In this document: in pieces, positions 38,627-57,313 of the stretch | How the letters are laid out: every line of letters begins with the position of its first letter | How positions within the stretch are numbered: position 1 is the stretch's first letter | Origin: Chloroflexota bacterium | Lineage (GTDB): Bacteria > Chloroflexota > Limnocylindria > P2-11E | Assembly: GCA_005887995.1 (NCBI GenBank) | Contig: VBJD01000026.1 | Coordinates: forward strand, 438-64,437 | Direction: 5' to 3' | Length of the DNA: 64,000 nucleotides | Notes under the pieces: generated by a model | Told to the model about the DNA's origin: nothing | Seen by the model: the letters and a program-made list of their open reading frames with translations, nothing else | Databases searched by the model: none | Position numbers and translations under genes: made by a program

Positions 38627-40126
38627 CTACGAAGCCGGAGGCGAAGAAGCAGGACGGTCCGGCGCCGACGGCGCCGGACCACCTATCACCACGCCCTTCC
38701 GACCGATGAGCCCCTCGACGCGGGCGAGGAAGAGAAGGATCAGCAGCGAGAGTCCGATCGCGATGACGACGCGCGGACCGCCTTCCGGCAGTGCACGCAG
38801 CACCGCGAGCCACTGCGGATCCGACCATGAGAAGAGGCGTGACGGATCGTCGTTGATGTTCGTCGGCGCCAGGTCCCAGGTGTTCTGGTCGTACACGAGC
38901 GCGGCGGCGCCAAAGAGCAGCAGCGACCAGCTCACGGCGAGCCAGAACACGCCGCGCATGAACCCAAGAGCGAACCAGCCGCCGCGCACGCCCCACGCGA
39001 GTCCGGCGATGAGCAGCGGCGCGAAGTCGTCGAGGAAGCGCGGACCGAAGACCCGCCCGCCCCACCACTCCGCGTACGTGGCGTACGCGCCGAGCAGCAC
39101 CGCCCACGGGATGAGCAGACCCGCGATGCGCTCGGAGATGCGTCCGCGCGTCGTGTTCGCGAAGCGCGCGATAACGCAGGACGCGAGCGCGAGGAAGGCC
39201 CATGGCTCGTAGATGAAGAGGCCGCGACTGGGTGACAGCAGCAGCCCGTAGAGGCCCTCGAGTATCGGCGTGTCGAATGGCTTCACGCCGTAGCCCTGCT
39301 CGACCGCCGATCCGTACACGAGCTGGTTGAACACGAGGAGCGGCAGGATGCCTACGAGCAGGCCGACCGCGAGCGCGATGAAGTAGCGCGACGGCGACCG
39401 CGTCGCTGGGAGCGCGAGCGCAACGAGCGCGGTCGTCTGTCGCACGACGCTCCCGAGCCCGAGCGCGACGCCGGCGACGAACTCGTTCCGCCGCGGCAGC
39501 CAGCGCTCCTGCAACAACAGCCACAGCGCGCTCGCGACCGCGAGGTGCACGCCGGCGTGCTGCCAGAGCGCCTGCGATGAGACGGTGCGCACGCTCGTGC
39601 CGAGCCAGTAGAGGAGGACGAGGCCCAGCGCCTGACGCTCGCTCGAGTAGCGACGGATGACCGCCCAGAGAAGGAGCGCGGCGAGCGTCTCGTAGAAGGC
39701 GGCGGCGAGGTGACCGACGCGGAGCAGGAGGCCGAGGTCGAGCGCCTCCGACCCGGCGAGCACGAAGGGCAGGAAGAACGGCAGCGCGAGCAGACCCATC
39801 CCCGGAGGGAACACCGAGCACACGTGATCGTTCGGTCCCGGTGCGGGTGGTCCGCCTTTGCTGCGCGGCACTTTCGGTGGTGCGGTCGCCGTGGACTTGC
39901 CGCAGGCGCGGAAGAAGTACGCCTCCGAGTCGAGGCGCATGTCCAGGGCGTTGCGGCTCGTCTGCAGCTCCGTCTCGCGGTCGGCCGGGCGGAACACGAA
40001 CTCGTCGTAGTCGACGTTCCCCTCCCGCAGCAGCGTGAAGGGCAGCAGCGCGTTCGGGAGGACATCCGGCGACCAGATGTCGTGAAGGTTTGCGAACGCG
40101 AGCGCGAAAAGGAGCAGCCCGCGCAT
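38627..40126 (-). CDS. Polytopic membrane protein, GT-C-fold glycosyltransferase-like (ArnT/PMT_2-like)
   Basis: Track ORF 38627..40672 trimmed to ATG 40126 (MRGLLLFALAF). The first loop carries the acidic VDYDEF motif. At least 10 predicted TM segments. Family assignment tentative. Confidence 0.5.
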   Translation of the reverse strand: MRGLLLFALAFANLHDIWSPDVLPNALLPFTLLREGNVDYDEFVFRPADRETELQTSRNALDMRLDSEAYFFRACGKSTATAPPKVPRSKGGPPAPGPNDHVCSVFPPGMGLLALPFFLPFVLAGSEALDLGLLLRVGHLAAAFYETLAALLLWAVIRRYSSERQALGLVLLYWLGTSVRTVSSQALWQHAGVHLAVASALWLLLQERWLPRRNEFVAGVALGLGSVVRQTTALVALALPATRSPSRYFIALAVGLLVGILPLLVFNQLVYGSAVEQGYGVKPFDTPILEGLYGLLLSPSRGLFIYEPWAFLALASCVIARFANTTRGRISERIAGLLIPWAVLLGAYATYAEWWGGRVFGPRFLDDFAPLLIAGLAWGVRGGWFALGFMRGVFWLAVSWSLLLFGAAALVYDQNTWDLAPTNINDDPSRLFSWSDPQWLAVLRALPEGGPRVVIAIGLSLLILLFLARVEGLIGRKGVVIGGPAPSAPDRPASSPPAS

Positions 40127-40175: not shown

Positions 40176-40811
40176 CTATTCGTCGAGCGCCACCACATAC
40201 ATGCGCACCTCGCGCGCGCCCCCGTCGCGGAGGGCGCCCGCCGCGGCGGAGAGCGTCGCGCCGGTCGTCGCGACGTCGTCGATGAGCGCCACACGCAGAC
40301 CGCGCGCGGCACCCGCTTCGGCGACGAACGCGTTGCGCATGTTCGCGACGCGAGCGGCGCGGTCGAGCTGCACCTGCGGCGTCGCGGCACGGATTCGCCG
40401 GAGGGGCGCCCGCAGCGGCAGCCCAACGCGCAGAGCGACCTCGGCCGCGAGCAGCGCCGCCTGGTCGTAGCCGCGGACCCGGGCGCGGTCGACGTGCAGC
40501 ACTGCGGGGACGACGACGTCGAGCACGACGCCGCGAGCGACATCGCGCGCGACACACGCCGCGACGAGGCCGCCCAGCTCCGCGGCGAGGCCGCGCTCGC
40601 CGTCGTACTTGAAGCGATGGATCGCCCTGCGTAGCGGGCCACCGAACGCGGCTGCGGCCTGCAGCCTCCCACGCCGGATCGGGTCGCAGAGATCGCGGCA
40701 GTCGAGGCAGAGCCACTCGCCCGGCGCGTCGCAGCCGGCGCAGCGCGGTGCTAGGAGGGCGTCGAGCAACGAGCGCGCGTCACGAGAGGGCCTCGATGAC
40801 GAGTTCGTCAC
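40176..40811 (-). CDS. comF: ComF-family phosphoribosyltransferase-like competence protein
   Basis: N-terminal Cys pairs (APRCAGCD...WLCLDC). RAIHRFKYDGERGLA. PRTase loop LIDDVATTGATL. Start is GTG 40811 or TTG 40769. Confidence 0.8.
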   Translation of the reverse strand: MTNSSSRPSRDARSLLDALLAPRCAGCDAPGEWLCLDCRDLCDPIRRGRLQAAAAFGGPLRRAIHRFKYDGERGLAAELGGLVAACVARDVARGVVLDVVVPAVLHVDRARVRGYDQAALLAAEVALRVGLPLRAPLRRIRAATPQVQLDRAARVANMRNAFVAEAGAARGLRVALIDDVATTGATLSAAAGALRDGGAREVRMYVVALDE

Positions 40812-41046
40812 CGGCTTGCGTGCCGGTGCGCGCGACCGTTCCAGCCGGGAGCTCGAGCACGTCCTGCGCGCCGCGGGCGCCGATCGAGAACGTCCACGGC
40901 GCAAGTCGCTCGGCAGTCCGGACGACCCGGCGCGCGCGATCGACGAAGACCGCGTCGATCGGGAAGCGCATAAACCACATGGTGATGAGCGACGTCTTCG
41001 TGATGAGCAGGCCCTCGCCGTCATCGAGGCGCGACCGCGGGATCAA
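40780..41046 (-). CDS. DUF192 (COG1430) domain protein; conserved N-terminal part lies upstream of the first canonical start
   Basis: WFMRFPIDAVFVD...DVLELPAGTVARTGTQAGDEL fits DUF192. The conserved CDIADNFFSRAFGL precedes TTG 41046 and is in frame with tadC across the TAG at 41149-41151. Confidence 0.65.
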   Translation of the reverse strand: MIPRSRLDDGEGLLITKTSLITMWFMRFPIDAVFVDRARRVVRTAERLAPWTFSIGARGAQDVLELPAGTVARTGTQAGDELVIEALS

Positions 41047-41148
41047 GCCGAAGGCGCGGGAGAAGAAGTTGTCCGCGATGTCGCAGCGCGTGGCGAGGTC
41101 GACCTCACGGGTGCGGTTGCGGACGCGGTGCGGCGCGGACGATCCTCG

Positions 41149-42066
41149 CTAGCCGGTCTGAGAGCAGGAGCTGAGCGCGGACAGCGCGGCGGGTGCGAGG
41201 ATGACGATGAAGAGCGACGGAAAGATGCAACCGACCGTCGGCAGCATGATGAGGATCGGCGCGCGCGCGGCCTTCTCCTCGGCGCGCTGGCGGCGCTCCT
41301 GACGCAGCTGGTCCGACTGGATGCGCAGCACCTTGGACATCGAGACGCCGAGCTGATCGGCCTGGATGATCGCGGAGATGAAGTTCTGGAGCTCCTTCAC
41401 CTCGACGCGCTCGGAGATGCCGCGCAGCGCCTCCTGCCGCGCCTTACCGATGCGCTGCTCCGCGGCTGCGCGCTTGAACTCATCGCACAGCGGCCCCTTC
41501 ATCTTCTCGGTGACCTTCACGACCGCAGCGTCGAAGCCGAGGCCGGCCTCGACCGAGATGGTGAGGAGATCGAGCGCGTCCGGCAGTTGATCGAGGACGG
41601 AGTTCGAGCGGCCGCTGGCCTTGCTCGACAGGTAGAGGTCCGGCGCCATGAAGCCGAGGATCAGACCGCCGAACGCCCCACCGATCGTGAAGGTGAAGTC
41701 GTTGCTCAGCAGGTTCACGATCGCGGACCCGGCGACCGCACCGACGAGCGCGGCGAAGCCCTTCACGCCGATGAAGAACTCGGTGCTCGTGTCCTCCATG
41801 CCGGCGCGCTTGAGCTTCAGGCCGATGCTGTTGGCGGTATTGGCCGGGTAGAACCGCCCGAGGAGCCGCGAGATGCCCTGGATGATCGGCTTCAGCGTGC
41901 GCTCAGAGAGCGGGCGCTGCAGCTCGAGCTCCTCGAGGGTCCGCGGGCGTACCGCGATCTGCTGCAGGCGGGCCTGCACCGGATCGAGCTCCGAGCCCAT
42001 GTTCATCGAGACGACGATGAGGATGACCCCGAGCATGACGACGAGACCAAGGGCGATCGGTGCCAT
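41149..42066 (-). CDS. tadC: Tad pilus inner-membrane platform protein (T2SSF domain)
   Basis: One T2SSF domain (LPDALDLLTISVEAGLGFDAAV...). Follows tadB. Confidence 0.85.
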   Translation of the reverse strand: MAPIALGLVVMLGVILIVVSMNMGSELDPVQARLQQIAVRPRTLEELELQRPLSERTLKPIIQGISRLLGRFYPANTANSIGLKLKRAGMEDTSTEFFIGVKGFAALVGAVAGSAIVNLLSNDFTFTIGGAFGGLILGFMAPDLYLSSKASGRSNSVLDQLPDALDLLTISVEAGLGFDAAVVKVTEKMKGPLCDEFKRAAAEQRIGKARQEALRGISERVEVKELQNFISAIIQADQLGVSMSKVLRIQSDQLRQERRQRAEEKAARAPILIMLPTVGCIFPSLFIVILAPAALSALSSCSQTG

Positions 42067-42069
42067 CGC

Positions 42070-43035
42070 CTAGACCTTGATGCTCACGATCTTCTGGATC
42101 ATGAAGAAGCCGATGACCATCATCACGCCGCCGACGCCGAGCAGGATCTGTCCGAGCAGCTGCGTGAACAGCGGCTGCATGAACGCCGGGTTGATGAAGT
42201 TCAGCGTGATCGCGATACCGATCGGGAGGAACGCGACAAGGTAGCCCGACATCCGGCCCTGCGCGGTGAGCGTGTTGATCTCGCCCTTGATGCGCACGCG
42301 CTCGCGGATGGTGAACGCGATCGTGTCGAGGATCTCGGCGAGGTTGCCGCCGACCTGCTGCTGGACGCCGATCGCGGTGACCATGAGGTCGAGGTCGTCG
42401 CTGCGGATGCGGCGCACAAGGTTCGCGAGCGCCTCCTCCATACCGAGACCGAGGTTCACCTCGCGGACGACCCGGCCCATCTCCTCGCCCATCGGTGAGG
42501 GCGTCTCTCGCGAGACGAGCTCGATCGACTGAAGGAAGCTCGAACCGGCGCGCAGCGAGTTCGAGAGGAGCGTGATCGTGTCCGCGAGCTGCTTGTTGAA
42601 TGCGCTGAGGCGTCCGCCGATGCGGCGGCCGACGTATAGGCGCGGGATCATGTAGCCGAGGATGAGTCCGATGGCCCCGGAGAGCGGGTCGCGGAGCACG
42701 CCGAGCACGAGCCCGAGCCCGAGCGCCGTGCCGACGCGGATGTAGTAGTACTCCGAGACCTTCAGCTTGAGGTTGGCGCGCGCCAGGTCGCGCTGCACCT
42801 TCGTCGAGAACTTCTTGTCGGCGACGTCGCCTGAGAGCGTCGCGAACGGGTCAATGACGTCCTTCTTCTTCTTTTCTTTCTTCGCGACGGACTTCTGCGC
42901 TTCGGCGCCGCCGGCGTAGCGCGCCATGCGGTCCTGGACGCTCATGCCCGAGCCCTTGATCAGGCCGTAGATGCCCGAGAAGAAGAGCAGTACGCCGAAG
43001 AACGCGGCGGCCGGGAGCGCGTACTGCATTGGCAT
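42070..43035 (-). CDS. tadB: Tad pilus inner-membrane platform protein (T2SSF domain)
   Basis: One T2SSF domain (LADTITLLSNSLRAGSSFLQSIE...). ATGA-type overlap with cpaF. Confidence 0.85.
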   Translation of the reverse strand: MPMQYALPAAAFFGVLLFFSGIYGLIKGSGMSVQDRMARYAGGAEAQKSVAKKEKKKKDVIDPFATLSGDVADKKFSTKVQRDLARANLKLKVSEYYYIRVGTALGLGLVLGVLRDPLSGAIGLILGYMIPRLYVGRRIGGRLSAFNKQLADTITLLSNSLRAGSSFLQSIELVSRETPSPMGEEMGRVVREVNLGLGMEEALANLVRRIRSDDLDLMVTAIGVQQQVGGNLAEILDTIAFTIRERVRIKGEINTLTAQGRMSGYLVAFLPIGIAITLNFINPAFMQPLFTQLLGQILLGVGGVMMVIGFFMIQKIVSIKV

Positions 43036-44456
43036 CAGCGGCTGAGCAGGCCGGTCATGTCGCCGAAGACGCCCTGCGGCAGCTTGATGCCGGCAGCCTC
43101 GAACTTCTCGCTGAACTTCGGACGGATACCTGTCGGCCGCATGCGGCCCTGGACCTTGCCGTCGACGTACGCCGTCTGCTCGAAGATGAAGACGTCCTGA
43201 AGGACGACCTGGTCACCTTCCATGCCCTGGACCTCGGTGACGTTCGTGATCTTGCGCGAGCCGTCCTTGAGGCGGCTGATCTGCACGATGAGGTCGAGAG
43301 CAGATGAGATCTGCTCGCGGATCGCGCGCTGCGGCAAGTCGACGCCGGCCATGAGGCACATCGTCTCGATGCGGCTGATCATGTCTCGCGGCGAGTTCGC
43401 GTGACCGGTCGAGAGCGAGCCATCGTGGCCGGTGTTCATGGCCTGGAGCATCGAGAGCGCCTCGCCACCACGGATCTCACCCACGACGATGCGCTCAGGA
43501 CGCATACGGAGGGAGTTCTTCACGAGGTCCATGATCGTGACCGCGCCCTTGCCCTCGATGTTCGCGGCGCGCGACTCGAGGCGCACGACGTGGTCCTGGA
43601 CGAGGCGGAGCTCGGCAGCGTCCTCGATGGTGACGATGCGCTCGTCCTCGGGGATGAAGCCGGACATGATGTTCAGGAGCGTCGTTTTACCGGAGCCCGT
43701 GCCACCGGAGATGAAGATGTTGAGCCGGGCCTCCACGCACGCGCGCATGAACTCCATCATCTCGGGAGTGGCTGTTCCGAACTTGATGTAGTCGTCGACC
43801 GAGATGCGGTACTTGGGGAACTTTCGGATCGTGACGACGGGCCCGTTGAGGGCGAGCGGCGGGATGATGATGTTCACGCGCGAGCCGTCCGGAAGACGCG
43901 CGTCCTCATAGGGCTTCGACTCGTCGACTCGCCGGCCGATCGGCGCGATGATCCGCTCGATGATGCGCATGACGTGCTCGTCGTTCTGGAACGTCGTGTC
44001 GGTGAGGACGAGCTTTCCCTTGCGCTCGCAGTAGACGCGGAACGGGCCGTTGACCATGACCTCGGTGATGGTGTCGTCGTTCAGGAGCGGCTGGATCGGC
44101 CCGAAGCCGAGGATCTCGTCGAGGATCGCTTCGAGCATCTTCTGACGCTCGACGCGTGTGATGACCGCGCCCTCCTCGTCGAGGAACTTGTTGAACATCT
44201 CTTCGATCGAGGCGCGCACGGCCTTCGCGTCGGAGAGGTCGAGGCGGGGGTCGAGGTTGTTGATGATCTTGGTCTGGAGCTTGATCCGGACGTCGCGGTT
44301 GGTGTCGCGGGCCGGGGCGACGCTTTGGGTGAGCGGGCCGGTCTCGGGCGTCTTCGGCGGCTGCTGGCCCGGGGGTTGGGGTGCGCCCGGAGCGGCCGGG
44401 GCGGCCGGCTGCTGACCGGCGGGACGCTGGCCCTCGATACGCCGCAGAAGACTCAT
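43035..44456 (-). CDS. cpaF: CpaF/TadA secretion ATPase
   Basis: Walker A GGTGSGKTT. Asp box VTIEDAAEL. IVVGEIRGGEA. His box TGHDGSLSTGHAN. Confidence 0.95.
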   Translation of the reverse strand: MSLLRRIEGQRPAGQQPAAPAAPGAPQPPGQQPPKTPETGPLTQSVAPARDTNRDVRIKLQTKIINNLDPRLDLSDAKAVRASIEEMFNKFLDEEGAVITRVERQKMLEAILDEILGFGPIQPLLNDDTITEVMVNGPFRVYCERKGKLVLTDTTFQNDEHVMRIIERIIAPIGRRVDESKPYEDARLPDGSRVNIIIPPLALNGPVVTIRKFPKYRISVDDYIKFGTATPEMMEFMRACVEARLNIFISGGTGSGKTTLLNIMSGFIPEDERIVTIEDAAELRLVQDHVVRLESRAANIEGKGAVTIMDLVKNSLRMRPERIVVGEIRGGEALSMLQAMNTGHDGSLSTGHANSPRDMISRIETMCLMAGVDLPQRAIREQISSALDLIVQISRLKDGSRKITNVTEVQGMEGDQVVLQDVFIFEQTAYVDGKVQGRMRPTGIRPKFSEKFEAAGIKLPQGVFGDMTGLLSR

Positions 44457-44607
44457 CGCTGAATCAACCCTCGCTTCCGGCTGGCGTTATGTGCCCGCCT
44501 GCTCCCTCGCCGTCGGAGTGTACGTCGCATGTATCGCTTTCTGACCACCCTGGCGGGGGTCTAACCCGTCGCATTCGCCTCGGCCCGCCTTGCGGCAGGA
44601 CTATCGG

Positions 44608-45882
44608 CTATCGCGCGCCGAAGAGCTTGAGGCCGCCCGGTCGCGCCGCTTGCTTGCCCGCCGCGGCACCCGCTTCCGAAGCGACGGGCGCACCGGCAAG
44701 CTTCGCCGCGAGGCTGAAGATGTCCTTACTGACCTGGCTGTCCTTGTGGCTGATGACGAACGGCACGCCGCGGTTCACGGCGAGCACAAGGGTGCGGCCG
44801 TCCGAAACGATGGTGTGCGGGATCTTGCGGCCGAGGCTCGCCTCGACGTCGCTCGCCTTGATGCCGCCCGACGAGTCGTTACGGTTCGCCACGAGCTGCA
44901 CCTTGTCCTGGCTGTAGCCGAGCTTCTCGACGACCTCCATGAAGACGCGGATGTTCTTCAGGCTGGTGATCTCGAGAGTCATGAGCGAGAGGACGACGTC
45001 GGCCGCGTCGAGCATCGTGATGACCTGCTCGCCGTACGACGGCCACGTGTCCACGATGACGTAGGCGTAGCGCTGCCTGAGGATCTCAAGCACGTGCTTG
45101 ATGTGCGCGCCGGTGATGAGCTCGGTCGACTCGGGCGTCGGCGGCGCGAGGAGCACCTTGATGCCGGTCGAGTGCTGCACGAGGATCGATTCGACGACGT
45201 CGGCGTCGGTCTGCTCGAACGAGCCGATGAGATCGGCGATCGTCTTCGCCTTGGGGCTCATGTTCAGGATGACGGCGATGTCGCCGAACGGCAGGCTGCC
45301 GTCGACGAGGACGACCGGCTTCTCGGTGGACTGATGGAGGGCGACCGCGAGATTCGTCGCGATCGTGGTGCGCCCGACGCCGCCCTTCGGTGAGAAGAAC
45401 GAGATGATCTTGCCCGTCTCGACGGCCGGCGCCGCGGCAGCACCGGCGACCTGAGTACCCGCAGCTGGCGCGAGCGGCGCGTAGCGCGCGCGGCGCACCT
45501 TCTCGAGCTCGTGGACGTGGCGGATCGCGTTGATGAGCTCGTCGGCGGAGAACGGCTTCACGAGGAACTCACGCGCGCCGGCGAGCATCGAGCGGCGCAG
45601 GTAATCCTGCTCTCCCTGAACGGACATCATGATGATCGGCGACTCGGGGACGGTGTTCGAGATGATCTCGGTCGCGGTGATCCCATCCATGTCGGGCATG
45701 TTGATGTCCATGAGGATCACGTTCGGCCGTTCCTTCTTCGCGAGGGTCACGGCCTCCTGACCGCCGCCAGCGGTGCCGGCGACAGTCATGTCGGGCTCGA
45801 ACCCGATCAGCTTGGCAAGGTTCTCACGCGTGTCGGCGATGTCGTCGACGATGAGAATGCGGATCTTTTCGCCATCAGCCAC
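44608..45882 (-). CDS. Response-regulator receiver fused to CpaE/TadZ-like ParA/MinD ATPase
   Basis: REC (ILIVDDIADTRE...VILMDINMPDMDG...FLVKPF). Then the deviant Walker A SPKGGVGRTT. Confidence 0.9.
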   Translation of the reverse strand: MADGEKIRILIVDDIADTRENLAKLIGFEPDMTVAGTAGGGQEAVTLAKKERPNVILMDINMPDMDGITATEIISNTVPESPIIMMSVQGEQDYLRRSMLAGAREFLVKPFSADELINAIRHVHELEKVRRARYAPLAPAAGTQVAGAAAAPAVETGKIISFFSPKGGVGRTTIATNLAVALHQSTEKPVVLVDGSLPFGDIAVILNMSPKAKTIADLIGSFEQTDADVVESILVQHSTGIKVLLAPPTPESTELITGAHIKHVLEILRQRYAYVIVDTWPSYGEQVITMLDAADVVLSLMTLEITSLKNIRVFMEVVEKLGYSQDKVQLVANRNDSSGGIKASDVEASLGRKIPHTIVSDGRTLVLAVNRGVPFVISHKDSQVSKDIFSLAAKLAGAPVASEAGAAAGKQAARPGGLKLFGAR

Positions 45883-45965
45883 GCGTCAATATCGCTCCCC
45901 TCAGTTGAGTCCCGGCCGAGTTTACAGGCGCTGGTCGGGTCCGGCGCCACCTGTACGGGTGACCA

Positions 45966-46454
45966 TCAGGATGTTCCGAGCGCGATGACGCCCGTGATCT
46001 CGAGCGCCAGCGCGAGCAGACCACCAAGACCGAGCGCGACCCCGTACGGGATGGACTGCTTCATCAATCCGGAAACGCTCGGCGCGCTCGCGCCGTTCGC
46101 CGGACGCAACCGGCGGGTCGCGATGAACCCGACGGCGATGAGCCCGCCGAGCAGCGCGCCGTACAAAGCCGATACGAGGAAGAAACTTGTGCCGCGCACG
46201 GCGCCGACCGCCATGAGCAGCTTCGCGTCGCCCGCCTTGAGCCCGCCCGCGGCGTAGAAGGGATAGGACAACGCGAACGCGAGCACCAGCGCCGCGACGT
46301 GATCGACGAGCCCGCCGGTGAAGAGACCGCCCGGGATGCCTTCGACGACGCCGAACACAAGGCCGATGAGCATCGCCGGATAGGTGACGGCGTTGGGGAT
46401 CCGGAGCCAGCGGAAATCCGTGTACATCACAACGAGAAGGAGGGCGGCGAGCAC
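45966..46454 (-). CDS. cpaA: Prepilin peptidase, A24 family (CpaA/TadV type)
   Basis: Two catalytic Asp contexts (YTDFRWLRIPN and GLKAGDAKLL). Polytopic. Confidence 0.85.
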   Translation of the reverse strand: MLAALLLVVMYTDFRWLRIPNAVTYPAMLIGLVFGVVEGIPGGLFTGGLVDHVAALVLAFALSYPFYAAGGLKAGDAKLLMAVGAVRGTSFFLVSALYGALLGGLIAVGFIATRRLRPANGASAPSVSGLMKQSIPYGVALGLGGLLALALEITGVIALGTS

Positions 46455-46507
46455 CGTGTCTTCGACGATTCGTCCAGCGTCGATGCTCGTCGCCCTCCTC
46501 GGACCTT

Positions 46508-46660
46508 CTAGGTGAGGTTGTTGCCGATGTTGCTGAAAATGTTCTGGATCTGACCGCGGAGGAACACCATGGCCACGATGACCGCGATCGCAATCACAGC
46601 GATGATGAGAGCGTACTCGACCAGGCCCTGCCCTTCGTCTTCACGGATGAATGTCAACAT
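46508..46660 (-). CDS. flp: Flp-family type IVb pilin (50 aa prepilin)
   Basis: Inside track ORF 46508..46903. ATG 46660 is preceded by GGAAGGAGGGAG. MLTFIREDEGQG/LVEYALIIAVIAIAV carries the Flp G-x4-EY processing motif. Confidence 0.9.
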   Translation of the reverse strand: MLTFIREDEGQGLVEYALIIAVIAIAVIVAMVFLRGQIQNIFSNIGNNLT

Positions 46661-49173: not shown

Positions 49174-50256
49174 TCAGCCGATGAGCGTGAGCAGCGGCGG
49201 GCCAAGGAACACGAGCAGCAGCGCCGGCAGGATGCAGAAGGTGAGTGGGAAGAGCATGAGGACCGGAAGCCGGCGCGCGCGGGCCTCCGCGCGGTGACGT
49301 TCGGTCGTGCGGATCGAGTCGGCCTGGAGCACGAGAAGCCGCGCGAGCGGCGAGCCGAACCGCATCGACGCGACGACGAGCGCCGTGATGCGGGCTTCGT
49401 CCGGCCCGCGCGCGAAGGTCGCGAGCGCATCGCGCAGCGGCCGGCCGAGCGCGAGGTCCGCGAGGAGTCGACGCGCATCCGCGTCGCGCGTCGTGAGTGA
49501 TGCGCGCTCGACGAGACCCGCGAGCGCGCGCTCGAAGGTGAGGCCGGCCTCGAGTCCGACGACCATGGCGTCGAGGAACGACGCGAGATCAGCGGGCGCG
49601 AGCGTCGAGCGCACGATGCGCCACAGCCACGCAGCTCCGGCGCACTCGAACGCGAGCGCGAGGACCAGCACGATGCGCCCGGCGTCGAACAGCGTCGCGA
49701 GGTAGCCGTCCATCGCGAGCGAGAAGAAGACCACACCGAGCGGCGCGAGCGCGACGAGCACGAGGGCCGATGCCTGACTTTGGGCGAGGAGTGCGGCGCG
49801 CTCCGCGGCGAGCGCAAGCCGGCTTCGCAGCAGCGCGGCGATGCGCTCGAGACTCGCGCTCACGCGACCCCCGCTGCGCGCGAACGCCGAGAGCACGACC
49901 GCGAGCGGCGCGATGTCCTCCGCGGGCACGACGGCGTGGTACTCCACGAGCGCGACGCTTGGCGACGCGCCGAGGGTGAGCGATGCGGCAACGCGTCTCG
50001 TCGCTGCGGCGAGGCGGGGTTCGAGCGTCGGCGCGATCTCGGCGAACGCGACCGAGAGCGACACCCCGCCCGCGAGCGCTCCGGCGAGCGCCTCGATGAG
50101 GCCGGGCAGAGCAGCGCGCGATGCGCTCGTGCCGCACGAGCGACGCGGCCACGCGAGCAGCCGGATCGCGCGCCCGCGGCGCTGGCTCGACCCTCCATCG
50201 ACGAACGTCGCCGCGAACAACGCCGTCGCGGCGAGCCCGAGGATCGCGGCGATCAC
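49174..50256 (-). CDS. Tad-like platform protein with two T2SSF domains in one polypeptide (TadB-TadC fusion-like)
   Basis: Two repeats: PGLIEALAGALAGGVSLSVAFAEI... and FLDAMVVGLEAGLTFERALAGL... Each is followed by TM pairs. ATGA overlap with the upstream ATPase. Confidence 0.7.
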   Translation of the reverse strand: MIAAILGLAATALFAATFVDGGSSQRRGRAIRLLAWPRRSCGTSASRAALPGLIEALAGALAGGVSLSVAFAEIAPTLEPRLAAATRRVAASLTLGASPSVALVEYHAVVPAEDIAPLAVVLSAFARSGGRVSASLERIAALLRSRLALAAERAALLAQSQASALVLVALAPLGVVFFSLAMDGYLATLFDAGRIVLVLALAFECAGAAWLWRIVRSTLAPADLASFLDAMVVGLEAGLTFERALAGLVERASLTTRDADARRLLADLALGRPLRDALATFARGPDEARITALVVASMRFGSPLARLLVLQADSIRTTERHRAEARARRLPVLMLFPLTFCILPALLLVFLGPPLLTLIG

Positions 50257-51365
50257 AGGATGGGCCGCAGCTCGTATGTATCGCGCGCGTCGGGGACGAC
50301 CTCGACGACGTGCGTGATGCGCCGCCGTCCGTCGGGCAGGCGCTGCTGCTGGATGACGATCTCGATCCCGCGGCGGATCTGCTCGCGTATGGCGGCGAGC
50401 GGCAGATCGACGCCTGCCATGAGCGCCATCGTCTCGAGCCGCAGGAGCGCTTCATACGGTCCGTTCGCGTGCGCGGTGGTCAGCGAGCCGCGGTGACCGG
50501 TGTTCATCGCCTGGAGCATGTCGAGCGCCTCGCCACCACGGACCTCACCGATGACGATGCGGTCCGGACGCATGCGGAGCGCGGCGCGAAGCAGCGTGCG
50601 GACGTCGATCGCGCCCGTGCCCTCGACGCTCGGCGACCGCGTCTCGAGTGACACGACGTTGGGCTGCGGCAGCCGGAGCTCGGCCGCGTCCTCGATCGTG
50701 ACGATGCGCTCGCTCTCGCCGATCGCGAACGCGAGCGCGTTGAGCGTCGTCGTCTTACCGCATGATGTCCCGCCGGAGACGAGGATCGAGCGGCGATCGC
50801 GCACGGCACCGACGAGCACGTCCATCGTCGCGGCATCGCACGTGTCGAGACGCACGAGGTCCTCCGGGCCAAGCGCGCGCTGCGTGAAGCGACGGATGGT
50901 GAGGATCGGTCCGGCGAGCGAGATCGGAGGGATCGCCGCGTGCACGCGCGAGCCGTCGGCGAGACGCGCGTCGACAAGCGGATTCGCAAGGTCGATGCGT
51001 CGCCCGAGCGGTGCGACGAGGCGCTCGATGATGAGGACGATCTCGTCCTCAGACGCGAACTGCACTGCCGCACGTTCGAGGCGGCCCTCGCGCTCGACCC
51101 ATACGCCGCGCAGTCCGTTCACCATCACCTCGCTCACGCGTTCGTCGCGCAGCAACGGTGCGAGCGGGCCGAGGCCGAAGAGCCGATCGTCGAAGAAGCG
51201 CTCGAGCTCCACGAGCTCGACGGAGGGCGCGACGATCCGCTCGGCGGTGAGCGTGTCGCGGAGCGCCGCCTTCAGCATCTCGCGGCGCGGCCGCCCGTCT
51301 TGTGCTTCGCGCAAACGCGAGACGAGACCGCGTTCGATGCGCTGCTTCGTCGACTCGGTCGTCAC
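50253..51365 (-). CDS. CpaF/TadA-like secretion ATPase (short form, variant Walker A GGTSCGKTT)
   Basis: VTIEDAAEL, IVIGEVRGGEA, TGHRGSLTTAHAN. Lacks the long N-terminal region of the 43035..44456 paralog. Confidence 0.9.
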   Translation of the reverse strand: MTTESTKQRIERGLVSRLREAQDGRPRREMLKAALRDTLTAERIVAPSVELVELERFFDDRLFGLGPLAPLLRDERVSEVMVNGLRGVWVEREGRLERAAVQFASEDEIVLIIERLVAPLGRRIDLANPLVDARLADGSRVHAAIPPISLAGPILTIRRFTQRALGPEDLVRLDTCDAATMDVLVGAVRDRRSILVSGGTSCGKTTTLNALAFAIGESERIVTIEDAAELRLPQPNVVSLETRSPSVEGTGAIDVRTLLRAALRMRPDRIVIGEVRGGEALDMLQAMNTGHRGSLTTAHANGPYEALLRLETMALMAGVDLPLAAIREQIRRGIEIVIQQQRLPDGRRRITHVVEVVPDARDTYELRPIL

Positions 51366-52291
51366 GACGTGTCGATGAGGAGCAGCTCGCTGAGGTCGTC
51401 GTAGGCGCGACCGAGCGCGCCGCGCACGGCCGCGCGCCCCGAGATCGCCGCGGCGACCGCAGGCTCGTCGCGCGGCAGGGCGCGGAACACGTTGCGTTCA
51501 CCGACGCGCGACCGCGCGCACTGCGAGCCGATGAGCCACACGTCATCGCTCTCGCTCGGCAGCGCCGCGGCGGACATCGGCTCGTCGTACGCGAGGAAGA
51601 GCGTCCGCTGTGCAAGCTGTGCGAGCGATGCCGTGAGCGCGTCGAATGCGATCGGCGCATCGACCAGCACGAGGTCGTCGGATGCGAGGGCGACGCGCAC
51701 GACCGCGAGAAGCAGCGCTCGCGTTGGCGCGAGACCCACGCCGCCGACGCAGCGGACGCCGGCGACGGGTTCGTCGGCCGCGAGCGCCAGCTGCTCGACG
51801 GACATCTCGTCCGCGAGCGCCTCGAGCGACGGCCACGATCGTGGATCGGCGCCGAGCCACCACGCCGCGGCGCCCGATCCGGTCGCGTCGAGGAGCCACA
51901 CGCGGCGCTGCTTCGCGATGCGACGCGCGACGTTGGTCGCGAGGAGCGTTCGTCCGACGCCGCCGCGCGCGCCGGTGACGACCATCATCCGCGTCGCGGC
52001 TCGGGTCCGCGTGGGGAGGATACGAACGAGCGCGGGCCCGAGTCGCGCCGGCTCGATGCCCGCGACGAACGACGCGTCGAGGCCCAGCGCCGCGACGAGC
52101 GGTCGCTCCACGTCGCCGCCGACGAAGACGCGCGGGACGCCGGTCATCGCGGCGGCCCGTCGTACCGCGGCGGCGTCGCGCAGATCCACGACGAGCGCCT
52201 CGGGGCTCGTGTCGCACGGCTCGAAGCCGAGCGCGAGCACCGCTGCATGCAGCGCCTCGTCGCCGAGCACCGCGACGCGCGCCGACGGCAT
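51362..52291 (-). CDS. CpaE/TadZ-like ParA-fold protein with degenerate receiver-like N-domain and degenerate P-loop
   Basis: Trimmed from track ORF 51362..52855 to ATG 52291 (TGATG overlap). VVTGARGGVGRTLLATNVA has the signature Lys replaced by Arg. The N-terminal 100 aa is receiver-shaped but has no acidic pocket that I can see. Confidence 0.65.
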   Translation of the reverse strand: MPSARVAVLGDEALHAAVLALGFEPCDTSPEALVVDLRDAAAVRRAAAMTGVPRVFVGGDVERPLVAALGLDASFVAGIEPARLGPALVRILPTRTRAATRMMVVTGARGGVGRTLLATNVARRIAKQRRVWLLDATGSGAAAWWLGADPRSWPSLEALADEMSVEQLALAADEPVAGVRCVGGVGLAPTRALLLAVVRVALASDDLVLVDAPIAFDALTASLAQLAQRTLFLAYDEPMSAAALPSESDDVWLIGSQCARSRVGERNVFRALPRDEPAVAAAISGRAAVRGALGRAYDDLSELLLIDTS

Positions 52292-52707
52292 CACCGACTC
52301 GAGCGGAGCAGCGCGATGAGCTGCATGCCGCCGGCGCGCGCGCTCGCGAGCGCGGCCGCGTCGCTCTCGTCGACCTCGAGCAAGAGGCCACGGTCGTCGG
52401 CGAGGATCACCGCGGCGCCGTACACGAGAGGCGTCGCGAACGCGCGATCGCCGATCTTCATACCGAAGACATCGAGCAGATCGCCACGTCGGAGGCGCGG
52501 TACCGGCGCGGCGAGCCAGGTCGATGGGACGAGGATCGCCCACGTCGCGGGATGCAGCTCGTCGGCGAGGCTCGTCTGCGCGGCCGCGGGCGCAGTCGCG
52601 GATTGTGACGATGCGAGTGCGCCGAGCGCGAGGAGCGCGGACGCGATCCCGAGCGCGATGCGCCGTCGATCGGGAAACCGCGACCGGACCGTCAGCGACG
52701 GGAGCAT
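52291..52707 (-). CDS. Mini CpaB/RcpC-like pilus assembly protein (138 aa)
   Basis: Trimmed to ATG 52707. N-terminal TM (RRIALGIASALLALGAL). RRGDLLDVFG...VILADDRGLLLEVDESDAAALASARAGGMQLIALLRS resembles the RcpC C-terminal beta-clip domain. No full SAF domain. Confidence 0.5.
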   Translation of the reverse strand: MLPSLTVRSRFPDRRRIALGIASALLALGALASSQSATAPAAAQTSLADELHPATWAILVPSTWLAAPVPRLRRGDLLDVFGMKIGDRAFATPLVYGAAVILADDRGLLLEVDESDAAALASARAGGMQLIALLRSSR

Positions 52708-53117
52708 TCGCCCGCGGGGAATCCGGCGCGGTACGACGCGCCGGACGAGAGGATCGTGACCTCGACGCGGCGGTCGGCGCAGCGGAGCGTGACATCGTCG
52801 ATCGCGCTGCCGCCGTTCGCGGCGCTGGCCTCGGCGGCTGCGGCACGCGCGGCATCGTTCGTCGCGGCGGAGCCGATGACGCGGCCGATGTCCATCACGC
52901 GCTTCTTCGCGACGGCCTCGCGGAGCGCCGCCGCATACGCGTCCGCGACCGCGGTCGTCGCGGCCTCGGCCGCGGCCTCGCCCGCGCGGCGCGACCGTTC
53001 GAGCGCGAAGGCGCGAGCCTGCTGGAGCTGGAGACCGATGAGGACGGCGGCGGCGATCGCGATGATGAACGCCGCGAGCAGGACCGCCTGTCCGCGGTCG
53101 TCCCTCACGGCGTCCAT
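52692..53117 (-). CDS. TadG-like (Tad_N) pseudopilin-like protein
   Basis: RGQAVLLAAFIIAIAAAVLIGL is an N-terminal Tad_N-type segment. Confidence 0.6.
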   Translation of the reverse strand: MDAVRDDRGQAVLLAAFIIAIAAAVLIGLQLQQARAFALERSRRAGEAAAEAATTAVADAYAAALREAVAKKRVMDIGRVIGSAATNDAARAAAAEASAANGGSAIDDVTLRCADRRVEVTILSSGASYRAGFPAGECSRR

Positions 53118-53500
53118 TCGATGCGCCGCGCGGACGACGCCGTGACGACGACCTGCGAGAGACCGACGAAGCGCAGCGGCATCGGGATCGCGTAGCTCGC
53201 GCGCACCACGAGCAGCGAGCCGCGCGGATCGCTGTTGCGCGGCGGCACTCCTGCTGCCGGCTCGATGGCGGTGACGACACGCTCGGCTACCAGCGGCGTC
53301 ACGGCGGCGGCAAGCGTGGAGCGGATCGCCTCGTCGTCGTTCGTGAGCGCGCCGGCGCGCGCCGCTTCGGCGGTCGCATGCTGCAGCGAAAGACGGGCGA
53401 CGCCGACCTCGGCCGTGAGCAGGATCGCGAAGGTCGCGATCATGAGCACGGGTAGCACGAGCGCGAATTCGACGAGCGCCTGGCCGCCGTCGCGCGTCAC
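53105..53500 (-). CDS. TadE-like pseudopilin
   Basis: Trimmed to GTG 53500. GGQALVEFALVLPVLMIATFAIL is the TadE N-terminal signature. Confidence 0.7.
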   Translation of the reverse strand: MTRDGGQALVEFALVLPVLMIATFAILLTAEVGVARLSLQHATAEAARAGALTNDDEAIRSTLAAAVTPLVAERVVTAIEPAAGVPPRNSDPRGSLLVVRASYAIPMPLRFVGLSQVVVTASSARRIEWTP

Positions 53501-53522
53501 GCGCGTGCGCTGCGCCGTCGTC

Positions 53523-54584
53523 TTACGGACATGGTTTTCGCGTCGCGCGCGGCAGCAGCTCACGCAGTCCCTGCACGATGGGGATGCGGAAGATCGGGTT
53601 CGTCTTGCTCGCGTACACGCACGCAAGCACGGTGAGCACGCAGATCGCACCGAAGACATGCCAGCCGAGCTCATCCGACCGGTCCTCGATCGCCTGAACG
53701 AGCAGCGGGCCGCGGTGCTCCGGCGGGACGGCTCTCGTCGTGATCGTGCGGAACGTCAGATCGATCGCTTCGGGATCGTCGAGGATCCCACCGTGACCTT
53801 CGAGCGCGCGACCGAGCGTGCGCGATGCGACACCGGGATCGCGTGCATCGCGCGGCGTGACGAGCGTGTCGTTCGCCTCGCGCAGATCGAGGCGGACGAC
53901 GCCCTTCGGCGGCGGAATCGGCCGCGTGCTCGCGAGATCGCGCACCGCCTGCGACTCGCTCTCCATCCGCAGCCAGAGCAGGCTCTCGTGGATGGCCGGG
54001 TTCGGTCCGCGCGCCACGCTGTTCGCGAGCACGAATCCGCGCGCCGCGTCGCTCCCGCTATGCGGCGCGGACCAGGCGACGTACGTTGCGACGCCGTCCT
54101 CGTGCGACAGTCCTTGGGCGAAGGCACGATCGGCGACGACGCCGCCCATCGAATGGGTCACGATGTGGACGACGGAGTGCGTGGGCGCGAGGGAGCGGAT
54201 GTGATCGCGCAGGTTGATCGCGCTCGCGTCGATCGATCCGAACGTGTCGAACGGGAAGCGCGGATCGGTGCCGAAGCGGACGACGTCCGTGTTCGGCAGC
54301 GCGGCAAGGCGTTCACGCAGCGTGTCGAACGTCCCGTCATCGGGACACGCGCAGGACTGATAGCCGCCGACAAGGATCACGAGCTCCGGGAGCTCCGCGT
54401 CGGTCGGTGCCGGGCTTGCGGTCGGTGCATCGACGTGGCGCAGAACGCCCAGCGGCGGGCGGATGTGAGGGCTCGCAGTGGCATTGCCCCTGGAGCCCTC
54501 GTCCGCTGAGGCGACGAGCGCTGCGGACGCCAGGAAGGGAAGGGTGAAGGCCATGACGACCGCGGCGCGAAGGAGCCGTCGCAT
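53523..54584 (-). CDS. Secreted alpha/beta-hydrolase (lipase/esterase-like, PGAP1-like) with C-terminal TM anchor
   Basis: Signal MRRLLRAAVVMAFTLPFLASAALVASA. Nucleophile elbow VTHSMGG. C-terminal TM WHVFGAICVLTVLACVYA. Lies 22 nt upstream of the TadE-like gene. Confidence 0.7.
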   Translation of the reverse strand: MRRLLRAAVVMAFTLPFLASAALVASADEGSRGNATASPHIRPPLGVLRHVDAPTASPAPTDAELPELVILVGGYQSCACPDDGTFDTLRERLAALPNTDVVRFGTDPRFPFDTFGSIDASAINLRDHIRSLAPTHSVVHIVTHSMGGVVADRAFAQGLSHEDGVATYVAWSAPHSGSDAARGFVLANSVARGPNPAIHESLLWLRMESESQAVRDLASTRPIPPPKGVVRLDLREANDTLVTPRDARDPGVASRTLGRALEGHGGILDDPEAIDLTFRTITTRAVPPEHRGPLLVQAIEDRSDELGWHVFGAICVLTVLACVYASKTNPIFRIPIVQGLRELLPRATRKPCP

Positions 54585-54647: not shown

Positions 54648-55373
54648 CTAAGGGCGAGCGCGGGCGACCGCGGCGGCCTGCTCGTTCGCGAGACGCTCCT
54701 CGCGATCTTCAAGTGGCGAAAGACGCACTGTCCCGTGGCGGCGCTCGAGCGCCCAAGTGAGGAGCTTGTCGGCGAGCCACGGATTCTTCGGAAGGCACGA
54801 TCCATGGCTGTACGTCCCGACGAGCTTTCCCTGCACGGCGCCTTCGGTGTGGTCCTCGCCGTTGTTGCCGTGACCCACGACGACCGCACCGAGCGGGACC
54901 GCGCGCGGACCGAGATACGTGCGACCGCTGTGGTTCTCGAACCCGACGAGCAGACCCTCGGGCGTCTCCGCCACGAGGTTACCGACGAAGCGCTGCTTTC
55001 CCGCCTTCGTGTGCACATCGAGCACGCCGAGCCCCGGGATCGGGTCACCGACCTCGGGCAGGTACTCCGTGCCGAGCAGCTGGTACCCACCGCAGACCGA
55101 GAACGCGGCCGCGCCGCCCGCGATGGCCTTGCGCACCGCGTCGCCGTTCGGGCCCTGCAGGTCGGCGCCGACGACGTCCTGCCCGATGTCCTGTCCGCCA
55201 CCGAAGAAGAACAGATCGGGCCAATCGGGATCGAACGTCATGCCCGTCGTGTACGCGCGCACCTCGACGGCGATGTCGCGCCAGCGCGCACGCTGCGACA
55301 GAGCGATGACGTTGCCGCGATCGCCGTAGATCCCCATGAGGTCCGGGTACAGGTGAGCGATGCGCAGATCCAC
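54648..55373 (-). CDS. gatD: Lipid II isoglutaminyl synthase, glutaminase subunit GatD
   Basis: Aligns along its full length with GatD as I remember it (IAHLYPDLMGIYGDRGNVIAL, FFGGGQD, CGGYQLLG, VGFENHSGRT, GNNGED, GTYSHG). GTG start, TAGTG overlap with the upstream gene. Confidence 0.9.
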   Translation of the reverse strand: MDLRIAHLYPDLMGIYGDRGNVIALSQRARWRDIAVEVRAYTTGMTFDPDWPDLFFFGGGQDIGQDVVGADLQGPNGDAVRKAIAGGAAAFSVCGGYQLLGTEYLPEVGDPIPGLGVLDVHTKAGKQRFVGNLVAETPEGLLVGFENHSGRTYLGPRAVPLGAVVVGHGNNGEDHTEGAVQGKLVGTYSHGSCLPKNPWLADKLLTWALERRHGTVRLSPLEDREERLANEQAAAVARARP

Positions 55374-55777
55374 TACTTGTTCGCCTTCTTGCTCGTGTTC
55401 TTGCTCGCGGTCTTCTTCGTCTTCGCGGTCTTCGCCGGAAGCGTCTCCGCATACGCGAGGCCGTCGGCGATCCAGCGCTTGAGCGAGGCGCCCTTCATGT
55501 CCTTCGCCGGCACCTCGACGTACTCGCCCATCGGTCGCCCCGGCATCGGCTCGAATCGGCGCGCGCCGGCCTTCGTGGCTTTCGCCCGACCGGTCTCGTC
55601 GAGGCGCACCGCGATCTTCGGTCCGAATGTGAACGCGAACATGTTCCCGTTCACGAAGAGCGCCGGGTAGCTGAACATCGTCTTCCGCGCGATGTCGCTT
55701 CGCGCCGGCGACGCTCCGTCGAACGCCGCGACCACCTCCGGCGGCGTCTTCGTGAACTTCGGCATCTCCCGCGGCAT
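55373..55777 (-). CDS. TfoX N-terminal domain protein with Lys-rich tail
   Basis: KTMFSYPALFVNGNMFAFTFGPKIAVRLDE...YVEVP fits the TfoX_N pattern (MFGG..lf.nG.mFa.v....l.lK). Tail AKTAKTKKTASKNTSKKANK. Confidence 0.65.
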   Translation of the reverse strand: MPREMPKFTKTPPEVVAAFDGASPARSDIARKTMFSYPALFVNGNMFAFTFGPKIAVRLDETGRAKATKAGARRFEPMPGRPMGEYVEVPAKDMKGASLKRWIADGLAYAETLPAKTAKTKKTASKNTSKKANK

Positions 55778-55900: not shown

Positions 55901-57313
55901 TCAATCCTCCCAGAACGGCGGCACGTGGCCGCGGCGCGCGAGCTCGCCGCGCAGCGCGAGCATCGCCGTGTACGTCGCCAGCACGACGAGCTCGCCGTCG
56001 CGCGCGACGCTGCCGACCGCGCGATCGATCGCGCTTCCCCACTCATCGACGACCTCGATGGCGTCGAGCGGGACGCCCGCGTACTTGAAACGGTTCGCGA
56101 GGTCTCGTGAGCGAATCCCGGTGACGACGACGTGTTCGATCGACGGTGCGAGCGTCTCGAAGTCGGCGTCCCAGATCCACGACACATCACGGCCATCGGC
56201 GTCGCGGTCGTTCAGCGCCGCGAGCAGCTTGGGATGCCGGCCGGTCTCGAGGAGCGCGCCGACCGCGGCATTGAAACCCGCCGGGTTCTTCACGAGGACG
56301 AGGCGCACGAGCCGTCCGTCAACGGGCAGCTGCTCGAGTCGACCGAACGCCGGACGGAACGCGGCGATCGCGCGCGCCGCGGTCACGAGGCTCACATCGA
56401 GCGCGCGCGCGGCCGCGAGCGCGGCGAGCGCGTTGTAGGCGTTATAGAGGCCGGGGACTGGGACGCGGATGGGATCGAATGCGGAGGACACCGCGACGCG
56501 GAGTTCGATCTCGCTCGCCGATGGCTCAAGACGGATCGTCTTCGCGCTCACGTCGCGCGGCGGACGCGCGAGGCCGCACTGACCGCAGGACCAATCGCCC
56601 TCATGCGCGAGGACGACACGCTCGTAGCGCAGCGGCGCCTTGCAGCGGGGGCAGCGCGTCGCGTCGCTGATCGCCTGCGGGATCTTCCCACCGACGGACG
56701 GATCGTCGACGCCGAAGTACGTGACGGGACCCCGATGTCGCGTGCCGATGAACGCGACGATCGGATCGTCCGCGTTGAGCACGAGTGCGGTCGAAGGGTC
56801 GAGCTCCGCGATGGCATCGCCGATGCGCTTCGCGAGCTGGTCGATCTCGAAATACCGATCGAGCTGATCGCGGAAGAGATTCGTGATCACGACGATGCGC
56901 GGCTTGATCCGACCGAGCACTCGGGGGAGTGATGCCTCGTCGACCTCGAACAGGCCGAGGTTGCCGCTCAGCGCGCCACGCCACGATGAATCGGCGAGAA
57001 GGGCGCCCGCGATGCCGCGTTCGAGGTTCGAGCCGGAGCGGTTGTGGATCGGGTACCAGCCGCTGCCTTTCGCGATATCCGAGAGCATCCGCGCGGTCGT
57101 CGTCTTCCCGTTCGTCCCTGACACGAGCACGACGCCGTGCGGCAGCGCGCGAGTGAGCGCGGCGATGTAGTCGGGGTCGAGCTGCAGCGTGACGAGCCCG
57201 GGGAGTGCGGTGCCGCCGCGTCCGGCGATCTGGAGGCCCATGAGTGTGACCTTCCCCGCGGCGTTCGCGACGAGCGCGAGGGCGTCAGGCACGACGCGAA
57301 GCGTATCCGTCAC
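55901..57313 (-). CDS. murT: Lipid II isoglutaminyl synthase, Mur-ligase-like subunit MurT
   Basis: P-loop VSGTNGKTTT. Cys4 ribbon CPRCKAPLRY...WSCGQCG. C-terminal DUF1727-like region. Confidence 0.9.
   Translation of the reverse strand: MTDTLRVVPDALALVANAAGKVTLMGLQIAGRGGTALPGLVTLQLDPDYIAALTRALPHGVVLVSGTNGKTTTARMLSDIAKGSGWYPIHNRSGSNLERGIAGALLADSSWRGALSGNLGLFEVDEASLPRVLGRIKPRIVVITNLFRDQLDRYFEIDQLAKRIGDAIAELDPSTALVLNADDPIVAFIGTRHRGPVTYFGVDDPSVGGKIPQAISDATRCPRCKAPLRYERVVLAHEGDWSCGQCGLARPPRDVSAKTIRLEPSASEIELRVAVSSAFDPIRVPVPGLYNAYNALAALAAARALDVSLVTAARAIAAFRPAFGRLEQLPVDGRLVRLVLVKNPAGFNAAVGALLETGRHPKLLAALNDRDADGRDVSWIWDADFETLAPSIEHVVVTGIRSRDLANRFKYAGVPLDAIEVVDEWGSAIDRAVGSVARDGELVVLATYTAMLALRGELARRGHVPPFWED

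Follow-up and report, generated by a model that had tools for sequence, protein, structure and literature searches.

A ComF-family gene and a DUF192 gene at the end of a Tad pilus operon in Chloroflexota, a candidate tie between pilus and DNA uptake

Does a pilus operon that ends in a gene of a competence family mark a machine for taking up DNA? The question is raised by a 64,000-nucleotide stretch of DNA, hereafter the window, from an uncultured soil bacterium of the phylum Chloroflexota, class Limnocylindria (GenBank assembly GCA_005887995.1, contig VBJD01000026.1, C30 in our numbering), in which a Tad/Flp pilus operon on the minus strand (40176-46660) runs through a DUF192 gene into a gene of the ComF family. 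The window has about 67% G+C, and the genome to which it belongs comprises 3.02 Mb in 231 contigs and is 86.7% complete. Natural transformation is not known from any member of the Chloroflexota, and few genetic tools exist for the phylum. We find that the locus is the main module (pilin and motor) of a monoderm-type Tad/Flp pilus operon with two conserved 3′ passengers, DUF192 and comF, and we ask what this arrangement, which recurs through much of the phylum, says about the use of the pilus.

The operon opens with a 50-residue Flp prepilin (46508-46660), whose Pfam Flp_Fap score of 31.9 bits lies just below the cut-off of 32.2, whose processing motif GQG/LVEY is legible, and which public gene callers also give as a 50-residue Flp_Fap protein in soil metagenomes. 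It is followed by a TadV-type A24 prepilin peptidase (45966-46454; Peptidase_A24, 53 bits), a REC-CpaE/TadZ protein in which a receiver is fused to a ParA/MinD-type ATPase (44608-45882; Response_reg 100.5 and AAA_31 55.2 bits), and the CpaF/TadA motor ATPase (43035-44456; T2SSE 216 bits; best NCBIfam match TIGR03819 (TadA), 338.8 bits against a cut-off of 373). The platform proteins come next: TadB (42070-43035; T2SSF 69.6 bits), whose start overlaps the cpaF stop by 1 nt, and TadC (41149-42066; T2SSF 70.1 bits), which ends in a TAG at 41151-41149. Right after that TAG opens the frame of a type-A DUF192 gene with a domain of about 115 residues (40780-41148; DUF192 70.7 bits), and 10 nt past its stop a TTG begins the 197-residue ComF/ComFC-family protein (40176-40769), made of a four-cysteine zinc ribbon and a phosphoribosyltransferase (PRTase)-like domain. 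A preliminary description of the window had reported these eight genes on one strand with small gaps, and every element of that account is confirmed: from flp to comF the gaps are 53, 83, 151, −1, 3, 0 and 10 nt, none above 151 nt, and nothing resembling a terminator turned up in a consensus scan of the interval from tadC to the gene that follows comF. Several soil metagenomes have contigs with an identical CpaF, and public gene callers annotate the locus alike there, with a ComF of 197 residues and a DUF192 protein of 88 residues started at an internal TTG. The receiver of REC-CpaE carries all the canonical phospho-acceptor residues (D13, D14, D59, S87 and K109, as read off the translation), and the full-length match is kept across Chloroflexota loci; TadZ receivers described elsewhere are atypical and lack the canonical phospho-acceptor residues.

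Is the last gene a true member of the ComF family, which in model bacteria helps single-stranded DNA on its way through, or out of, the ComEC channel? Its best NCBIfam matches, GntX (NF008616; 82.3 bits against a cut-off of 304) and TIGR00201 comF (79.5 against 233.55), both fall far below threshold. These are its top two families by 18 orders of magnitude (E about 1e-22, against about 1e-4 for other PRTases), and the ComF cut-off was exceeded in only 2 of 14 control genomes. Alignments of 18 and 20 sequences with relatives leave the cysteines of the N-terminal zinc ribbon (C10, C13, C21, C24) invariant and keep both an RGY(N/D)Q motif and an intact phosphoribosyl pyrophosphate (PRPP) loop, DDVxTTGAT; of the 'double zinc ribbon', this genus has lost the second ribbon. 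A sequence search of solved structures gave PRTase-loop matches only (7p0h at E = 0.006), which made a fold comparison necessary: the AlphaFold2 model (predicted local distance difference test score, pLDDT, 94.7) finds its best match in the Protein Data Bank in Helicobacter pylori ComF, 7p0h, with a template-modelling (TM) score of 0.69 over 203 columns, and the next matches, PurF-type PRTase domains, reach TM 0.49 at most. The best 120 of 3626 homologues are all 184-260 residues long, and the ones given a name by their source appear as 'ComF family protein', 'double zinc ribbon domain-containing protein' and, twice, 'predicted amidophosphoribosyltransferase'. On motifs and modelled structure we accept the gene as belonging to the ComF family at the level of fold and motif. 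With H. pylori ComFC (7p0h), Bacillus subtilis ComFC and Escherichia coli GntX it shares the zinc ribbon and the type-I PRTase-like fold; it differs from these known proteins in an identity of only about 18%, in having neither comFA nor comFB, and in its place within a pilus operon.

How far does the arrangement reach? A ComF orthologue is present in 23 of 24 same-genus genomes, the lone exception being 81% complete, and at all 23 loci DUF192 lies directly upstream of comF, with tadC upstream of DUF192 wherever the contig extends that far. The same order recurs in both same-order genomes and in family f3. In family f4 tadC is followed by an insertion, a stand-alone receiver gene and about 4.5 kb, beyond which DUF192 and comF are still adjacent or 2.7 kb apart. 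A wider sample, annotated with hidden Markov models built from proteins of the class, drew 40 DUF192 loci from within the phylum, where about 35 families were covered, and a further 80 from named genomes spread over the Bacteria. Among the Chloroflexota and Dormibacterota loci, tadB, tadC or cpaF lies on the same strand within 3 kb upstream of a type-A DUF192 gene at 50 of 66, and comF within 1.6 kb downstream at 31 of 66; the corresponding figure for comF in other phyla is 0 of 40. Lineage-specific neighbours (a membrane protein, a 368-residue protein and prs) are confined to a family or an order, and the DUF192-comF pair outlasts them. The linkage of comF to tad is thus tight on phylogenetic comparison, being kept from genus to phylum level in Chloroflexota and Dormibacterota, and, judged by gene order, the succession tadC-DUF192-comF is not a matter of chance. 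The comparative signal is strong, yet it lies within one phylum and, as far as gene neighbourhoods tell, is partly explained by an older comF-secA neighbourhood, to which we return below. Our literature search found no paper linking comF to tad operons.

Does the genome hold the rest of a DNA-uptake pathway, and which pilus could serve it? It encodes a full-length ComEC (185 bits, with competence and metallo-β-lactamase domains), a ComEA (HHH_3, 46.7 bits) adjacent to it, and DprA (199 bits); with all three present, the objection that their absence would have raised to the DNA-uptake proposal falls away. The same three genes occur in 10-11 of 14 control genomes, so that their presence discriminates weakly. 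Three T2SSE ATPases were found, all scoring best to the TadA family, and no PilB-type ATPase was detected in this genome or in 28 of 32 Chloroflexota tested. With Tad-type ATPases the sole type IV filament motors detected, no candidate other than the Tad pilus was seen, if filament-based DNA uptake occurs at all. No match to the secretin that marks diderm-type Tad systems (RcpA/CpaC; PF00263) was found in the 86.7%-complete genome, which is in line with the monoderm-type envelope suggested in the preliminary description. A second Tad module (Tad-2; 49174-54584, minus strand) comprises an alpha/beta-hydrolase, TadE-like pseudopilins, a CpaE-like protein, CpaF2 and a fused TadB/C (Pfam PGAP1-like, TadE, T2SSE at 185 bits, and T2SSF); its TadE-domain protein (53105-53674, minus strand; 36.6 bits) provides the TadE/TadF pseudopilin expected of a Tad system. 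A third Tad-like set lies on another contig (C16:18860-24120) and contains a TadE/TadG-like protein, a CpaF-type ATPase (C16:22098-23429; TIGR03819 251.7 bits) and a T2SSF-like protein.

The reading we favour, at a probability of roughly 40%, is that ComF is co-expressed with a DNA-capturing Tad pilus, which would make a Tad-based uptake machine plausible on the gene content and annotation described. In such a machine comF would be expressed together with the cell's only type IV filament; the Tad pilus would be what captures DNA, a task it has in Micrococcus luteus; captured DNA would be passed to ComEA, ComEC, ComF and DprA, with ComEA, ComEC and DprA encoded away from tad; and the canonical receiver on CpaE would put pilus assembly under two-component control. 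The tie between Tad and ComF would be regulatory, through co-expression, rather than structural, because ComF persists without Tad in streamlined relatives. The proposal of a Tad-based DNA-uptake machine in the preliminary description therefore survives in part: the comF-tad linkage, the com genes and the Tad-only motors speak for it, whereas its argument from a TfoX_N gene does not hold.

The closest known systems give this reading its models. In M. luteus two separate clusters, tad-1 and tad-2, jointly build one Flp pilus that is needed for transformation alongside comEA and comEC (PMC4322843), and the present bacterium resembles it in being monoderm, in having separate Tad clusters and no secretin, and in possessing comEA and comEC. 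The two differ in that the role in M. luteus was shown by knock-outs whereas here the link is known from genes alone, in that a physical link of comF to tad is not described there (comF is not mentioned in PMC8467076), and in that we deal here with Chloroflexota and with a CpaE bearing a canonical receiver domain. Liberibacter crescens needs its Tad pilus for the uptake of double-stranded DNA and ComEC for transformation (PMC8513845), and there too comEA and dprA are encoded away from the tad locus; unlike the bacterium studied here, it is a diderm with a secretin, and its comF is unlinked to tad.

A number of observations weigh against DNA uptake as the meaning of the linkage. The comF gene is near-universal in bacteria, whether known to be competent or not, and about half of the sampled Chloroflexota families have comF elsewhere; so do all five tested genomes in which tadC-DUF192 lacks comF, with comF convergent with another cpaF in one of them and beside a mutase-like gene in two. 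No comEA, comEC or dprA lies near the tad genes at 162 loci bar one (L059, in genome G059), where a comEA-comEC pair lies about 5 kb from tadC-DUF192 on the opposite strand, and the idea that these com genes keep company with tad was rejected. Nor do the loci share an upstream motif. Upstream of comEA stand two palindromes in tandem, GTCAC-N8-GTGAC, with GGCTT between them (C194:11600-11640), and this double element is missing from the window, from the tad loci and from 200 other loci; a scan of the rest of the genome was negative except at C77:16383-16440, where a near-identical 45-bp element lies upstream of a LAGLIDADG-like open reading frame starting MDRFELAWAAGFFDGEG, and a motif common to com and tad was accordingly discarded. 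The actinobacterial box TTGTCCACAG, allowing at most one mismatch, gave scattered matches only, none at com or tad loci. The idea that comF joins tad where a type IVa pilus is absent was likewise rejected: PilB occurs in just 4 of 32 genomes, and all four, with an additional PilB-type pilus, retain comF beside tad. Finally, the streamlined genomes of family f5 in the same class (G033, G288 and G300; 1.1-1.2 Mb, 91-93% complete) have no T2SSE ATPase, while comEC is present in two of the three and comF in G033, the sole genome of the family searched for it. ComEC and ComF thus persist in this family without a detectable type IV filament. DUF192 was not found in G033 and G288, the two genomes searched for it, and the pattern therefore has DUF192 going with Tad, and ComF with ComEC.

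Might the gene order be an inheritance with no functional tie? A Tad operon with DUF192 could have landed upstream of an ancient comF(-hpf)-secA block in an early Chloroflexota ancestor, an account that we regard as quite possible, if itself doubtful. A co-directional secA follows comF at a distance of no more than 8 kb at 13 loci from several deep Chloroflexota and Dormibacterota lineages (L044, L046, L062, L063, L065, L067, L073, L074, L095, L096, L130, L143 and L157), immediately after it in L065 and elsewhere often with CpaF2 in between. In Firmicutes and Actinobacteria, too, comF has hpf and secA for neighbours, and we know of no functional meaning of this adjacency; an adjacency so old and so lacking in known purpose makes long-lived neighbourhood weak evidence of shared function, which tells against DNA uptake too. 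HPF itself (PF02482) has no match in the window's own genome. The comF genes found away from tad in the five genomes with a comF-less tadC-DUF192, the survival of comF and comEC after Tad loss in f5, and the want of any other com gene or shared motif at the tad locus all fit such an inheritance. Gene order, however, rarely outlasts divergence on the scale of a phylum unless the genes are co-expressed, and the unrelated neighbours of the locus are lost past the level of family or order. DUF192 and comF, moreover, hold together where tadC and DUF192 have been split (f4) and where no tad gene is near (L082, L065). CpaF2 is the very next gene after comF at eight loci scattered over several deep lineages, which places comF between Tad-1 and Tad-2 (L062, L063, L067, L073, L074, L130, L143 and L157); with a second Tad module thus parting it from secA, comF sits among Tad genes there and does not travel with secA.

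A more direct role is conceivable, in which ComF and DUF192 act on the Tad machine itself, for instance as a cytoplasmic TadB/TadC accessory sensing nucleotides or PRPP, independently of DNA uptake; this we consider unlikely. DUF192 is associated with Tad in many phyla (PMC12786226) and has gone together with it in f5, no gene in the phylum is tied to DUF192 more tightly than comF, and the PRPP loop of ComF is intact, all as such an accessory would have it. ComF, on the other hand, is kept where both Tad and DUF192 are absent, and its link to tad is missing in half of the families and from every one of the 40 loci in other phyla. The best 120 of 3626 ComF homologues include no fusion to DUF192, to TadC or to other Tad proteins, so that Rosetta-stone support for a ComF-Tad tie was rejected, and the known function of ComFC is the transport and handling of single-stranded DNA (PMC9005727). 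A bolder extension of the DNA-uptake reading, improbable to a like degree, would make Tad pili the ancestral DNA-uptake pili of Chloroflexota, Dormibacteria included, and DUF192 a Tad platform accessory that physically couples the pilus to the ComF/ComEC translocase; if true, this would be a direct link from pilus to translocase of a kind not known in any competence system. Far less credible than any of these is that a competence-type regulator governs the second Tad cluster. The preliminary description had placed that cluster just downstream of a TfoX_N gene and taken the gene as a further competence link of Tad. The cluster is real, and the gene, which precedes the Tad-2 operon by about 0.8 kb and shares its strand, encodes a true TfoX_N domain (55373-55777, minus strand; 134 residues with a lysine-rich tail; 46.1 bits against a cut-off of 30.1). 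But gatD (54648-55373) intervenes, and the TfoX_N gene sits inserted between it and murT (55901-57313), both on the minus strand, with its stop abutting the gatD start. The protein lacks the TfoX_C domain that a TfoX/Sxy regulator should have. A homologue is found in 33 of 61 genomes of the class and is missing from a 97%-complete genome of the same genus, and at the TfoX_N loci of 29 relatives murT, gatD or the Tad-2 hydrolase lies within 1.5 kb in none. With its linkage unconserved (0 of 29), we rejected TfoX_N as a regulator of Tad or competence and count it as no part of the system. In one same-genus genome (G003) a decayed remnant of TfoX_N is all that is left, on the contig that also carries its comF.

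What, then, of DUF192? The association of type-A DUF192 with Tad loci across many phyla is, on the gene neighbourhoods compared, a more robust result than the DNA-uptake reading. Two types can be told apart: type A, of about 115-120 residues, and type B, a frame of about 200 residues with weak matches only, which is never near tad. Type A follows tadC directly in Chloroflexota, Dormibacterota, Geomonas, Gemmatimonadota, Verrucomicrobiota, Bdellovibrionota and one Bacillota genome; among Actinomycetota, Gaiellaceae included, it is oriented divergently to flp some 2 kb away. Outside the Chloroflexota and Dormibacterota, tad or flp is nearby at 8 of 10 loci in Actinomycetota and 4 of 7 in Acidobacteriota, and at single loci in Bacillota, Geomonas, Gemmatimonadota, Verrucomicrobiota, Bdellovibrionota and Planctomycetota. 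A paper of 2025 mentions in passing that Tad operons of Erysipelotrichales and Helcococcus carry a DUF192 gene at their 3′ end (PMC12786226). The tad operons of the monoderms Bulleidia extructa and Helcococcus ovis resemble the present one in having a DUF192 gene, of about 112 residues, consistently at the 3′ end, and differ from it in belonging to Firmicutes and in having a coiled-coil protein after DUF192 rather than comF (PMC12786226). Our literature search found no description of DUF192 as a Tad component, and it does not figure in current Tad models as far as we found. The AlphaFold2 model (pLDDT 95.7) matches 3m7a and 3pjy best (TM 0.76-0.78, root-mean-square deviation 1.6-1.7); both are structural-genomics DUF192 entries, and the fold search was set aside as a source of functional clues.

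The start of the gene is peculiar in the window and its close kin. There is no ATG, GTG or TTG at or before the conserved N-terminus in the window, where DUF192 continues in frame with tadC across the TAG. Across the 23 same-genus loci DUF192 is in frame with the tadC stop (TAA or TAG) at 18, offset by +1 at four and by +2 at one; many read 'TAA GTC CGA'. The start-less group embraces loci L006-L030, L095, L096 and L144. The start-less stretch shows third-position variation and is on that ground coding. Such genes may be reached by non-canonical re-initiation or by read-through. A TadC-DUF192 read-through fusion is unlikely as a general mechanism, with 5 of 23 same-genus loci out of frame and with distant kin in which the DUF192 start often overlaps the tadC stop as GTGA or TTGA. 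Outside the close kin group, 103 of 106 loci have a canonical start no more than a few codons from where the domain begins; with the start adjoining the domain there is no room for a signal peptide, which is why we predict that the type-A protein is probably cytoplasmic.

These findings bear on more than one genome. In the conserved Tad-DUF192-comF operon a phylum abundant in soil has a concrete candidate competence machine, and if it is one, the finding from M. luteus that Tad pili are competence pili would extend to a second monoderm phylum. At the same time, the link of type-A DUF192 to Tad turns out to be widespread, reaching Chloroflexota, Dormibacterota, Actinomycetota, Acidobacteriota, Bacillota and several diderm phyla.

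Beyond comF the strand continues without a change of direction. A polytopic membrane protein with no Pfam or NCBIfam match is encoded about 50 nt past comF (38627-40126, minus strand), and its homologues follow comF only at same-genus loci and at L095 and L096, a conservation at the level of the family. On one soil metagenome contig with an identical CpaF (L088), comF is followed by short genes of 237, 118 and 167 residues, in contrast to two others (L087 and L089), where a 510-residue membrane protein and a 368-residue protein follow; the difference suggests strain-level variation or disruption of the 510- and 368-residue genes.

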